Below, piece by piece: positions 12,001 through 18,000 of a DNA stretch of 39,530 bases. The position numbers are program-made. Source of the DNA: a virus (lineage: Duplodnaviria > Heunggongvirae > Uroviricota > Caudoviricetes); IMG/VR virus record IMGVR_UViG_2718218228_000004; one strand, 5' to 3'. Each line of letters begins with the position of its first letter. Position 1 is the first letter of the stretch.

Positions 12001-15000
12001 AGTGAGGGCGTTTATTTTGTGCCCTTCATGACAGACGGTAACGGCGTCAATACCGCCACTAACGCGCCGGCAGAAGATCCGGATATTCCGGCATCAGGAT
12101 ATTACGGTGCGGCATCGAGAACGAATGGAAACCAGGTATCATCAAACCGCCCGACACATTTCAGTTCATGGGCGCGCAGGAGCATTATTCCGGATCGTCT
12201 GGCAACCGCTATTCTGAACGCAGCCGGGCGCACCTCAGCCTTCATCAGTGGTAAGGCACCGGAAATCAAACCCTCGCCCGGCGGCAACACGCCATCGGGT
12301 CCGTCTGCAGATACGTCCGTTCGCACAATCTCCCTGCTGCCGGCAGCCGGAGAGGCTGCTGCGCAGGGCTGGAGCATTAAGGATGGCGGAATTCAGTTGT
12401 CAGATGGTGTATTTAAGATCACCAGGCAGAGCAATAAAACCTGGTCCCTGACGCATCCGGTGGATGACGCAATTACCCTGCTGACACAGGGCGGCAGACT
12501 GACCTGTAAGTTCCGCCTGTCAGGCGCACTGACCAACAATCAGTTCGGGCTGGGGATTTATCTGTATACGGATGCTCCCGTTCCTGATGGTGTGGCGATG
12601 ACGGGTACCGGTAATCCGTTCCTGATGTCGTACTTCACTCAGACCACTGACGGCAGGGTGAATCTGATGCATCACAGGAAAGCCGGAAACACGAAGCTGG
12701 GGGAGTTCGGCGATTACGGTAACGACTGGCAGACGCTGGAGCTGGTGTTCACCGCCGGCAGTGCCATGGTTACTCCGAAACTGAATGGAGTGGCTGGCCC
12801 GGCATTCCAGGTTATAAAAGACAGTCTGACACTGGGACTGAATGCGCTGACGCTGACGGATGTTACAAAAAATGCAGCGTATGGCGTTGAGATAGAAAGT
12901 CTGATGCTGGAGATAAATGCACCGGCAGCATAATAAAAAAACAGCCAGTACTGACTTTCGTCGGAGAAGTACTGAACCGCCCCGGTTTTCCTGGAGAGTG
13001 TTTTATCTGTGAACTCAGGCTGCCAGATCATCGTTTCCGATGGAAGCATAATAAGCTTTTTCTGCTTCTGCCGGAGGAGTATGGCCCAGCCTTCCCAGCA
13101 ATCGTCGATTGTTATACCAGTCCACCCACGTTAGTGTGGCCAGTTCCACTTCTGCACGGTTTTTCCAGCTCTTACGGTGTATTACCTCCGCTTTGTAAAG
13201 ACCATTGATGCTCTCAGCCATCGCGTTGTCATACGAGTCGCCTGTACTCCCTGTTGATGCCAGTAATCCGGCTTCTTTTAGTCGCTCCGTATAGGCCAGT
13301 GACACATACTGAGAGCCTTTATCGCTGTGATGGATGGTGCCAGACGGACGACGGGCCCACAACGCCTGCTCCAGCGCATCCAGCACGAATGTCGTTTCCA
13401 TAGACGATGAGACCCGCCACCCCACGATGTATCCGGCAAACACATCAATGATAAACGCCACATAGACGAAGCCCTGCCATGTGCTGACGTAAGTAAAATC
13501 AGCCACCCACAGCTGGTCAGGTCGTTCTGCCACGAACTGACGGTTTACGCGGTCGCCTGCGGCAACGGCTTTCCGGCTGATGGTCGTACGGACCTTTTTA
13601 CCCCGGAGAACACCGGCAAGTCCCATAACCGCCATGAGACGTGCCACTGTACATCTGGCCACCCTGATTCCTTCCCGTAACAACTGACGCCAGACTTTAC
13701 GCACACCGTACACCTGATGATTTTCATCGTATACGCGCTGTATCTCTCTCTTCAGCCAGTCGTCGTGCTGCGCACGGGCACTGCGTTTATCCGGATGATG
13801 TCGCTGTTGCTGACAATGGTAATACGTTGACGGGGCAATATGCAGTTCGCTGCATACCGGTCCGACCCCGTACTGCTCACGCAGCTTATCCAGCAGTGGC
13901 ATCATTTTTTCCAGAGGCGGTCGAACTCCGCCTTCGCAAAATAAGCGGAAGCCTGGCGAAGGATATCGTTACTGCGGCGCAGTTCACGATTTTCACGTTC
14001 CAGCTCTTTCAGACGCTGACGTTCAGCGCTGGTGAGCCCACCATCACCGCCCCCGGTATCCCGCTCATGCTGGCGAACCCAGACACGCAGAGTCTCCGGC
14101 GTACAGCCAATCTTTGGGGCAATGGAACAAATTGCCGCCCACTGTGAGTCATATTCATCCTGACTTTCCAGAACCATACGAATCGCCCGCTGACGGACTT
14201 CGGGGGAAAAACGAGTATTTTTAGTCATCCTGTTTACCTCTTTCTCAGGGAGTTTAGTCTCCAGGATTTCCGGGGCGGTTCATACTGGCTAAGAAGGATA
14301 GTTGGGTTTCACATGATACTTATATCTGGCAGTACATTTTCTGACAGACAGTGATGGGTGTTGTCAAGATATTGTGTCATTTATAACCTGAATCAGGGGG
14401 GGGAGCCGGAATGTTATCTGGCATTTTTAGCAGAGCCTGAATGCCATAATCACGGCTCCCGGCGTTGGCCGTCAGTGGGCGACACTGGCGGCTTTTTGTT
14501 TTCCTTTACTTTCATTTTCTGTCGGCGGTGACGGAGACATACATCAGATGGAAAAAATCACAACAGGTGTGTCATACACCACGTCAGCGGTGGGGACGGG
14601 ATACTGGTTACTGCAGCTGCTGGACAAAGTCTCTCCGTCCCAGTGGGTGGCAATCGGTGTGCTGGGGAGTCTGCTGTTTGGCCTGCTGACGTATCTGACT
14701 AACCTGTATTTCAAAATCAGAGAGGACCGTCGTAAGGCGGCGCGGGGGGAGTAAAGCGATGAAGAAAAAATACGAACTGGGTGTTAAAGGGATAAATAAT
14801 TACCCGGATAAGATTACTGTTACTGTGGCACCGGAAATTGGTGGGTATCCGTCACTGTTGTTGCCAGATGTGGCGATTAGTCTTGACCGTACTGAAGGTG
14901 CCACGCTGGAGTTTTACGAAGCTGAGGCGAAAAAGCAGGCGAAGCAGTTTTTCATGGATGTTGCTGCCGGGTTATGTGAAGGGGATGGTCCGTTGCCGGA

Positions 15001-18000
15001 AAAGCGCCCCGTAATTTTAGAGGCGCAGGATGTGTTGATAACCTACAGAGGAAAACTACCGGGAATAATTACGGGTTCTCTGAAGACTCCACCGCTGGCC
15101 TGAAGACTTAACATATCCAGGGATTTGAAATCGATAAACCCTGATAAATATCCATGAACGCAAAAATCAGATACGGCCTGTCGGCTGCCGTTCTGGCGCT
15201 GATTGGTGCAGGGGCGTCTGCGCCTGAAATCCTCGACCAGTTTCTTGACGAAAAAGAAGGTAACCACACCACGGCATACCGTGATGGTGCGGGTATCTGG
15301 ACCATCTGCCGCGGTGCCATCCTGGTGGATGGTAAACCTGTCGTTCCGGGCATGAAGTTGTCGAAGGAAAAATGCGACCAGGTTAACGCCATTGAACGTG
15401 ATAAGGCGCTGGAGTGGGTGGAGCGCAATATTAAAGTACCGCTGACCGAACCCCAGAAAGCGGGGATCGCGTCATTCTGTCCGTACAACATTGGTCCCGG
15501 TAAGTGTTTCCCGTCGACGTTTTACAGACGAATTAATGCAGGTGATCGCAGGGGAGCGTGTGAGGCGATTCGCTGGTGGATTAAGGACGGTGGCAGAGAC
15601 TGCCGTATTCGCTCAAACAACTGCTACGGTCAGGTTTCACGGCGTGACCAGGAGAGCGCGCTGGCGTGCTGGGGAATTGACAGATAAGCAGAATATTTTG
15701 CTGAAAAATGCGGTTTGCTCACACTGGCGGATAACACGAAATCCTGCGAACTGGCAAAAACTAAGTGAATAAAAGTAAAACCCCGTTTGTTGGCCGCAAA
15801 CGGGGTTTTGTGTTTCTGACCTTGAGTAAGGCAAGGGAGAACATGGGAAAGTATAAACGAATTCTGTTGAGATTGACTATGAAAAACGGCCTTGAACTGA
15901 AAGCGCCTGTAACTGATGACGTCAGCAGAGCGCTGGCTTTTGCTATTAAGTGGGTGGCGGTCGGTATTGCTGTGTCTCCGATGCTGTATGGGCTGGCAAA
16001 ACTGGTCATTGCGTTGAAATCGTGAAGAGGATTAAGCATGTCAGACAAGCTCATAACGCTGGCGAAGATCCTCTGTGTAATCGTCGGCATTTCATTTTCA
16101 CTAATGCTGGTTGCTATTTGCTTTTCCACTGCCTGGCGCGTCTTAACTTTGTCATGGCTGGTGGGGTGAGGGGGATATGAACCGCCCCGGAAATCCTGGA
16201 GACTAAACTCCCTGAGAAAGAGGTAAACAGGATGACTAAAAATACTCGTTTTTCCCCCGAAGTCCGTCAGCGGGCGATTCGTATGGTTCTGGAAAGTCAG
16301 GATGAATATGACTCACAGTGGGCGGCAATTTGTTCCATTGCCCCAAAGATTGGCTGTACGCCGGAGACTCTGCGTGTCTGGGTTCGCCAGCATGAGCGGG
16401 ATACCGGGGGCGGTGATGGTGGGCTCACCAGCGCTGAACGTCAGCGTCTGAAAGAGCTGGAACGTGAAAATCGTGAACTGCGCCGCAGTAACGATATCCT
16501 TCGCCAGGCTTCCGCTTATTTTGCGAAGGCGGAGTTCGACCGCCTCTGGAAAAAATGATGCCACTGCTGGATAAGCTGCGTGAGCAGTACGGGGTCGGAC
16601 CGGTATGCAGCGAACTGCATATTGCCCCGTCAACGTATTACCATTGTCAGCAACAGCGACATCATCCGGATAAACGCAGTGCCCGTGCGCAGCACGACGA
16701 CTGGCTGAAGAGAGAGATACAGCGCGTATACGATGAAAATCATCAGGTGTACGGTGTGCGTAAAGTCTGGCGTCAGTTGTTACGGGAAGGAATCAGGGTG
16801 GCCAGATGTACAGTGGCACGTCTCATGGCGGTTATGGGACTTGCCGGTGTTCTCCGGGGTAAAAAGGTCCGTACGACCATCAGCCGGAAAGCCGTTGCCG
16901 CAGGCGACCGCGTAAACCGTCAGTTCGTGGCAGAACGACCTGACCAGCTGTGGGTGGCTGATTTTACTTACGTCAGCACATGGCAGGGCTTCGTCTATGT
17001 GGCGTTTATCATTGATGTGTTTGCCGGATACATCGTGGGGTGGCGGGTCTCATCGTCTATGGAAACGACATTCGTGCTGGATGCGCTGGAGCAGGCGTTG
17101 TGGGCCCGTCGTCCGTCTGGCACCATCCATCACAGCGATAAAGGCTCTCAGTATGTGTCACTGGCCTATACGGAGCGACTAAAAGAAGCCGGATTACTGG
17201 CATCAACAGGGAGTACAGGCGACTCGTATGACAACGCGATGGCTGAGAGCATCAATGGTCTTTACAAAGCGGAGGTAATACACCGTAAGAGCTGGAAAAA
17301 CCGTGCAGAAGTGGAACTGGCCACACTAACGTGGGTGGACTGGTATAACAATCGACGATTGCTGGGAAGGCTGGGCCATACTCCTCCGGCAGAAGCAGAA
17401 AAAGCTTATTATGCTTCCATCGGAAACGATGATCTGGCAGCCTGAGTTCACAGATAAAACACTCTCCAGGAAACCCGGGGCGGTTCAATATGAACCGTGT
17501 TCTGTGTGTGGTGATTATTGTCCTGCTGGTAGCCTGTGGTGTGCTTAGTCTGGGGCTGAATCATTACCGCGATAACGCCATTACCTACAAAGCGCAACGC
17601 GATAAAAAAGCCAGTGAGCTGAAGCTGGCGAACGTGACAATTACTGATATGCAGGTACGCCAGCGTGATGTCGCTGCACTTGATGCCAGATACTCGAGGG
17701 AATTAGCCGATGCGAGAGCTGAAAATGAAACTCTGCGTGCTGATGTTGCCGCTGGTCGTAAGCGCCTGCGCATCAACGCCAACTGTCCAGGCTCCTTGCG
17801 TAAAGCCCCCATCACCTCCGGCGTGGATAATGCAACCGGTCCCCGACTGGCAGAAGCCGCTGAACGGGATTATTTCATCCTCAGAGAACGGCTGATGGCA
17901 ATGCAGAAGCAACTGGAAGGAGCACAGGAATATATCCGTACCCAGTGTATACCGTGATGTTTTGTTATGAAGGTGTTACTGGTAACGTTAAGGTAATTTA

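Follow-up and report, generated by a model that had tools for sequence, protein, structure and literature searches.

Two oppositely oriented IS629 copies around the lysis genes of an Sp14-type prophage of Escherichia coli O157

When two copies of an insertion sequence (IS) lie in opposite orientations around the lysis genes of a prophage, it may be asked whether the pair acts on these genes or only records two separate transposition events. Such a pair is found in the 39,530-nucleotide sequence of IMG/VR record IMGVR_UViG_2718218228_000004 (a virus of the Caudoviricetes), the whole of which is referred to here as the window. Two 1310-bp copies of IS629 flank the holin and endolysin genes, copy 1 on the minus strand at 12973-14282 and copy 2 on the plus strand at 16178-17487. 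The genome of E. coli O157 strain 350 (NZ_CP018243.1/CP018243), which was isolated from a human in the UK, matched an 8-kb region of the window at 100% and in a single piece. Genome comparison showed that the window is collinear with prophage Sp14 of strain Sakai, with copy 2 as the sole large insertion. The region is assigned to an Sp14-type lambdoid prophage of E. coli O157.

The arrangement very probably represents two separate IS629 insertions in opposite orientations that flank the lysis genes of a defective prophage, as neutral IS debris. It is best read in this way because the prophage is defective in other functions; moreover, no coding sequence is broken by either insertion. In the proposed mechanism, IS629, a member of the IS3 family, would have entered the Sp14 late region twice by copy-out/paste-in transposition. 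Copy 1 would be an old insertion that lies between the nanS-p and holin genes, reads antisense to the late operon and was inherited by typical O157:H7 strains. Copy 2 would be a recent insertion confined to strain 350, sense to the late operon and placed in a 7-bp spacer between a small open reading frame (ORF) and Rz, and its donor would be some IS629 other than copy 1. The inverted pair would be a passive substrate for homologous recombination, and a dedicated switch is not proposed.

Structure and family of the two copies

The repeat search placed the arms of the inverted repeat at 12970-14284 and 16176-17490, separated by 1891 nt. The identity of the arms was reported as 100% by rounding, and the true figure for the two elements is 1309/1310. 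The single difference lies at IS position 1297, where the plus strand of the window has T at 12986 in copy 1 and C at 17474 in copy 2. A 1310-bp repeat of such identity is not a chance match. In copy 1, the right terminal inverted repeat (IRR) is located at 12973-12997, followed by orfB (13015-13905), orfA (13902-14228) and the left terminal inverted repeat (IRL, 14258-14282). Copy 2 has the IRL at 16178-16202, orfA at 16232-16558, orfB at 16555-17445 and the IRR at 17463-17487. The terminal inverted repeats are imperfect and 25 bp long, with 22/25 positions matching (TGAACCGCCCCGG...CCGGGGCGGTTCA), and the element has TG...CA ends. The earlier note had described two inverted 1310-bp copies of IS629 type that encode identical OrfA and OrfB and differ by one visible base. 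This description held in full, from the coordinates to the comparison of the ORFs, and the IS3-family inverted repeats on which the note had staked its case are present at the ends of both copies.

The OrfA (108 aa) and OrfB (296 aa) proteins are identical between the copies. OrfA contains an HTH_Tnp_1 domain, whereas OrfB contains the HTH_21 and rve domains (Pfam; rve E-value 9.3e-28). The catalytic residues of OrfB form a DD(35)E triad (D136, D195 and E231), which is followed by K238. The overlap of the two genes falls at TGGAAAAAATGATG, orfB being in the -1 frame, and includes a slippery run of six A residues (A6). A programmed frameshift is annotated here by the Prokaryotic Genome Annotation Pipeline (PGAP), the frameshifting being a prediction from sequence. 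The ALIL frameshift-stimulating pseudoknot (Rfam RF01497) was detected in copy 1 at 13831-13947 on the minus strand and in copy 2 at 16513-16629 on the plus strand, with a score of 121.5 bits in each case (gathering score 50). In copy 2 the pseudoknot spans the A6 run at the orfA/orfB overlap (sequence CTGGAAAAAATGATG). The fused OrfAB scored 366 bits against the NCBIfam equivalog for IS3 family transposases (NF033516, cut-off 160). Moreover, copy 2 is identical at 1310/1310 bases to the element of Sakai Sp14 that is annotated as "IS1203 Family: IS3 / IS629 transposase OrfB". With every family feature looked for present in both, the two elements are classified as IS629/IS1203 of the IS3 family.

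Each copy is bounded by its own 3-bp target duplication, as the earlier note had also proposed. The sequence TAC is found to the left (12970-12972) and right (14283-14285) of copy 1, and ATA to the left (16175-16177) and right (17488-17490) of copy 2. The duplications of IS629 have been reported to be 3-4 bp long (Rump et al. 2011, PMC3271280). The independence of the two insertions, which the note had drawn from these duplications, is borne out by their distribution: copy 1 occurs in 289 complete genomes, whereas copy 2 occurs in strain 350 only and its site is empty elsewhere.

Origin of the two insertions

The site, orientation and TAC duplication of copy 1 are the same in Sakai, EDL933 and most O157:H7 genomes, and the equivalent copy in Sakai is annotated as an IS1203/IS629 repeat_region. 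The 289 genomes are those in which a query across the copy 1 junction was covered. This insertion was listed as "IS.15: Sp14" and was present in every strain of the A6 clonal complex tested (Rump et al. 2011, PMC3271280). The earlier note had proposed a comparison with related prophages that lack the IS. When copy 1 and one TAC were removed in silico, the reconstructed empty site was collinear with homologous prophages that lack the IS, and the junction showed no indel. On these comparisons copy 1 is the ancestral Sp14 insertion. It shares its site, orientation and TAC duplication with the Sakai copy (IS.15) and differs from it by one base of the IRR (12986).

The surroundings of copy 1 showed some minor features. 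A 9-bp inverted repeat (AGCCAGTAC ... GTACTGGCT) is located just 3' of nanS-p (window 12943-12972 and 14286-14290); copy 1 is inserted in its 3' arm, and the TAC duplication falls within this arm. The related prophages also have about 148 bp directly after the nanS-p stop codon that are missing from Sp14.

Copy 2 has a much narrower distribution. Among 5,426 complete E. coli genomes, its junction query was covered in that of strain 350 alone, at a single place. The sequence of copy 2 is identical to that of the Sakai Sp14 IS629, whereas its site is unoccupied in every other one of these genomes. The uninterrupted site (GGGGGATATGAACCGTG) is found in Sakai, ECP19-598 and OkiPb01687, and at least nine genomes are 100% identical across the other 6,688 bp and lack copy 2. 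By this distribution copy 2 was inserted recently and belongs to strain 350 alone.

The single base difference bears on the donor of copy 2. Position 12986 lies within the IRR, at a place where the IRL and IRR are already mismatched; the plus strand has T in copy 1 of strain 350 and G in Sakai. The T is shared at 100% identity by strains 319, 7784, 644-PT8, 180-PT54, DEC4E, F7508 and others. Its presence in many independent assemblies indicates that it is a real lineage marker that predates copy 2. In the IS3 family, copy-out/paste-in transposition duplicates both ends of the element. Since copy 2 has the canonical base, and both ends are copied in transposition, its donor should be another IS629 rather than copy 1.

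Three other origins of the pair may be considered together. The two copies lie only 1.9 kb apart in the same prophage and differ at 1 of 1310 bases, as might be expected if copy 2 were a local hop from copy 1. This is unlikely, because the T of copy 1 is common to many strains without copy 2 and is thus the older change, whereas copy 2 has the canonical base, like Sakai. An assembly artefact, in which a repeat was misplaced or duplicated in the strain 350 assembly, deserves mention because IS629 is a multicopy element (a 201-bp query that includes the IS end matched 29 places in strain 350) and repeats are a classic source of misassembly. However, copy 2 is flanked in unique sequence by a perfect target duplication of 3 bp, and the strain 350 assembly (GCF_001890265.1) was made from PacBio libraries selected for sizes of 10 kb or more, well beyond the 1.3 kb of the element (PMC5359411). 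Collapse or homogenisation of the repeats is also made unlikely by the retained one-base difference, which coincides with a lineage marker confirmed independently, and an artefact is scarcely credible.

The third origin is that of a composite transposon, in which the IS629-S-ydfR-R-IS629 unit arrived, or is mobile, as one piece. Tn5 and Tn10 are composite transposons with inverted IS arms around a cargo. The Sp14 pair likewise consists of two inverted, complete and apparently functional copies of one IS around a 1.9-kb cargo, and both of its outer ends are of the IRR type. Unlike Tn5 and Tn10, however, it is not framed by one shared target duplication: TAC stands at the left outer flank and ATA at the right, each recurring on the inner side of its own IS. 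The cargo shows the collinear order of the ancestral prophage, copy 1 occurs alone in the 289 genomes, and the unit was therefore built up in place. The IS-cargo-IS unit was found at one location only, as the copy 2 junction is unique among the 5,426 complete E. coli genomes, and there is no sign of movement. With no shared duplication and a single location, an origin as a composite transposon is largely refuted and is given next to no probability. The preferred reading is that of two insertions in place, the second from a donor elsewhere.

The site of copy 2 has consequences for Rz (17490-17957, plus strand), which encodes a 155-aa i-spanin (Pfam PF03245, E-value 2e-46). The earlier note had placed the copy just before Rz, and this can now be refined: the right ATA duplication overlaps the Rz start codon, its last A (17490) doubling as the A of the ATG. 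In Sakai only 7 bp separate ECs_5740 from the start of Rz, and copy 2 landed in this spacer. The Rz coding sequence is intact, and its product has the accession WP_001082682.1, as it does in strains that lack copy 2. The native leader (GGTGAGGGGGAT), including the ribosome-binding site, has been displaced 1.3 kb upstream of Rz. Behind this site there is now a mini-ORF of nine codons (MNRPGNPGD), which passes through the ATA and the IS end and runs into the IS. The new leader is the right end of the IS, in which CGGUUCA-AUA-UGAACCG can form an 8-bp hairpin that encloses the AUG; the hairpin arises because the target of copy 2 resembles the IS end. The predicted minimum free energy is -17.5 kcal/mol for the new leader, compared with -11.1 kcal/mol for the native leader, which has no stable structure at the AUG. 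With the native Shine-Dalgarno sequence lost and the AUG in a hairpin, translation of Rz may be reduced, and the effect is expected to be modest.

The resemblance between target and element is itself of interest. After the IRR and ATA, the sequence continues with TGAACCG, which is the same as the first 7 nt of the IRL (window 17481-17497; also 16175-16184). The IRR-ATA-TGAACCG arrangement mimics the junction of an IS3-type circle, and the insertion lies 3 bp from a 7-nt copy of the IS end. Outside the IS copies, TGAACCG occurs at four sites in the 39.5-kb window on both strands. Insertion targeted to inverted repeats has reportedly been described for IS911, and by analogy the target of copy 2 would fit such a mode of insertion. 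A target of the TGAACCG type was found at none of the seven other IS629 sites examined. This target is regarded as the most useful by-product of the analysis.

Second IS629 insertions were also found in other Sp14-type prophages: in terL (ECP19-598 and G5295), in terS (OkiPb strains), in the holin/ydfR region (CFSAN027350), and inside Rz (06_3288 and EPSSH018). They involve the same element and the same late, lysis and packaging region, and often form an inverted pair with copy 1. However, they disrupt genes (terL, terS, holin and Rz), whereas copy 2 occupies a 7-bp intergenic spacer and leaves all coding sequences intact. The lysis and packaging region of Sp14-type prophages appears as a recurrent landing zone for IS629, with independent insertions in terL, terS, holin, ydfR and Rz. 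In the loci compared, IS629 copies were located at 9315-10624 (L003), 8707-10016 (L004), 3956-5265 and 5976-7285 (L005), 2762-4070 (L006) and 2971-4280 (L007). All three second Sp14 insertions were in the plus orientation, and thus inverted relative to copy 1.

Some points weigh against the reading of neutral debris from two insertions. The pair is carried by one assembly only, and a low-frequency inverted isomer within the population is compatible with that. Any effects on expression and lysis in strain 350 are read from its sequence. The target of copy 2 matches the IS end over 7 nt, which suggests that the insertion was targeted and not random, and neutral debris leaves this match unexplained. 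The plus orientation of 3/3 independent second Sp14 insertions is a further point, which with n=3 may well be chance.

IS629 and its ancestral insertion are well known, as is the general occurrence of strain-specific copies among O157 prophages, and the pair amounts to ordinary variation between strains. Both IS copies are annotated in the public record of strain 350. Polymorphism of IS629 sites already underlies the typing and phylogeny of O157. The significance of the pair is small beyond strain typing, in which copy 2 is a private marker for strain 350.

Inversion, polarity and transcript pairing

The earlier note had stated that the S-R segment between the copies has not been inverted. The segment is collinear with Sakai Sp14 and the target duplications are matched, so that S-R indeed lies in its ancestral orientation. 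Inversion by homologous recombination between the 1.3-kb inverted copies is plausible, and inversions between inverted repeats have been documented in O157:H7 genomes (PMC8743559; PMC7430833). Rare inversion events probably occur, whereas a function for them is unsupported. No inverted isomer was found in the public complete genomes, which is a weak test because only one of them carries the pair, in the ancestral orientation. Inversion within the IS would leave all four IS/flank junctions unchanged, and the isomers can be separated only by sequence that spans a whole IS. A synthetic query for the inverted-isomer junction was uninformative for this reason: read on the opposite strand it is simply the native junction of copy 2, and it gave the same match.

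It might be supposed that the pair is a meaningful switch, in which RecA-mediated recombination flips S-ydfR-R relative to the late promoter and generates lysis-off subpopulations. The homology is ample (1309/1310 bases, inverted, 1.9 kb apart), and in O157:H7 genomes inverted repeats have been shown to recombine and cause inversions (PMC8743559; PMC7430833). However, the sole genome with the pair has the ancestral orientation and matched duplications. Five genomes whose Sp14 contains a different inverted IS629 pair, with the second copy in terL (ECP19-598 and G5295) or terS (three OkiPb strains), are all collinear as well. The Hin/Gin/Cin and fimS systems use short specific sites and a dedicated recombinase. 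The Sp14 pair resembles them in having inverted repeats around genes for which the direction with respect to a promoter would be important, whereas its repeats are 1.3-kb IS copies with no invertase, and it could be served by general homologous recombination only. No site-specific recombinase gene was found in or beside the segment by Pfam and PGAP annotation of the ORFs, and the only recombinase-like genes are the DDE transposases; with no invertase gene, the pair is not a programmed switch. Moreover, Sp14 is defective, unpackaged and one of many lambdoid prophages with lysis genes, which leaves little to control. A meaningful switch is very unlikely on these grounds.

The earlier note had also placed an IS between the Q-dependent late transcript and the lysis genes, and the position of copy 1 agrees with this. 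Q is located at 8847-9542 and tRNA genes at 9753-9999, and copy 1 lies between the Q/pR' region and the lysis genes. Published cases are informative on polarity. In a phage with stx2::IS629, the downstream late genes were still expressed and plaques were formed (PMC7430833). Sakai prophage Sp5, which has an IS upstream of its lysis region, is still transferable (PMC2669165), and the lysis module of Sp14 was scored as conserved and intact despite copy 1 (PMC2669165). Sp5 and the FRIK1275 stx2::IS629 phage likewise have IS629 within a Q-dependent late operon, upstream of lysis genes. Both have been shown to be functional, Sp5 by transfer and the FRIK1275 phage by plaques and downstream expression, whereas Sp14 of strain 350 is known as a sequence and is defective for other reasons. 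By analogy, these cases suggest that IS629 in the late operon is not polar, and the idea that copy 1 cuts off the lysis genes from the Q transcript runs against the published data.

A transcript that crosses both copies would have another property. It would contain IS629 in antisense and, 1.9 kb further on, in sense, and could fold into a near-perfect 1.3-kb duplex, a candidate substrate for ribonuclease III (RNase III). In the boldest form of the argument, the pair would be either an on/off lysis cassette operated by recombination, or a source of double-stranded RNA (dsRNA) that is cut by RNase III, uncouples S-R and Rz from the late operon and titrates the IS629 transposase mRNA during induction. 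Either route, inversion or dsRNA, would give heritable or induction-linked heterogeneity of lysis, and this view is highly improbable. Sp14 was rated defective for excisionase and general recombination, and likewise for several functions of the head and tail (PMC2669165); it was induced only via regional replication from Sp15 and was not packaged (PMC2669165). A lysis switch would be of little consequence because Sp14 is otherwise defective and unpackaged. If inversion or RNA pairing did alter lysis, the locus would be a minor example of IS pairs that make accidental prophage switches, and even so its consequence would be limited by the defects of Sp14 and by the many redundant lysis cassettes of O157. 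The reading of two IS629 insertions as neutral debris is retained.

Lysis genes and other features of the window

The last late gene upstream of copy 1 is a nanS-p-like sialate O-acetylesterase gene (11083-12933, plus strand, 616 aa), which corresponds to Sakai ECs_2746. Its product contains the Pfam domains DUF1737, SASA and DUF6645, and is named "SASA family carbohydrate esterase" by PGAP. The ORF ends at 12933, in agreement with the 39 bp that the earlier note had counted between the nanS-p stop and copy 1. The note had further stated that the copies bracket the holin and endolysin genes, and the segment between them does contain these, together with ydfR and two small ORFs, all on the plus strand. 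The holin gene S (14548-14754) encodes a 68-aa class II holin of the P21 type (PGAP; Pfam PF04971, E-value 8.8e-33), and is followed by a gene of the ydfR family (DUF1327; 14759-15103, 114 aa; PF07041, E-value 1.1e-44). The endolysin (lysozyme) gene R encodes 177 aa at 15154-15687 (PF00959, E-value 1.5e-24). Two small hypothetical ORFs of 60 and 43 aa follow at 15843-16025 and 16038-16169, which are annotated by PGAP and in Sakai (ECs_2740 and ECs_5740). Beyond copy 2, Rz1 is embedded in Rz at 17710-17895 on the plus strand and encodes an o-spanin lipoprotein (PF06085, E-value 4.1e-19).

A match to the STnc100 small RNA (Rfam, 98.8 bits) was observed at 10773-10945. A strong terminator-like hairpin with a tail of eight T residues lies at 10970-10988, just 5' of nanS-p, and a 1-bp difference from Sakai is found in the T run at 10989. 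Another terminator-like hairpin (14467-14493), with an 11-bp stem and a T-rich tail, is located between copy 1 and the holin start, and is kept in the IS-free related prophages. In the promoter and terminator scan the number of sites was not above that in shuffled sequence, and no inference was drawn from it except for the hairpin at 17480-17498, which is evident from the sequence itself.

Some other differences from Sakai were observed in the window. An 8-bp insertion (TGTTGTTT) is present at 18324-18331 in a TG-rich tract 5' of the PerC-family gene pchC (18430-18744). The large terminase gene has a run of ten G residues (G10) at 20177-20186, compared with nine in Sakai, which results in a frameshift, and the gene is called frameshifted by PGAP. 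The G10 form is also found in ECP19-598 and OkiPb01687. It could mean that the gene has truly become a pseudogene, that the tract is prone to slippage, or that long-read assemblies share a systematic homopolymer error.

The regions 29000-33999 and 36000-38999 diverge from Sakai Sp14 by 16-71 differences/kb, whereas the remaining window is nearly identical; this suggests that mosaic exchange may have taken place in the tail genes. Within a single ORF of 859 aa (27425-30004) there is a 1-bp indel at 29185; the Sakai counterpart is annotated as two tape-measure fragments (ECs_2725/2726). At the end of the window, a 337-aa ORF on the minus strand (38517-39530) contains tandem repeats of about 141 bp and corresponds to tccP/espFU, the type III secretion system effector gene of Sp14.

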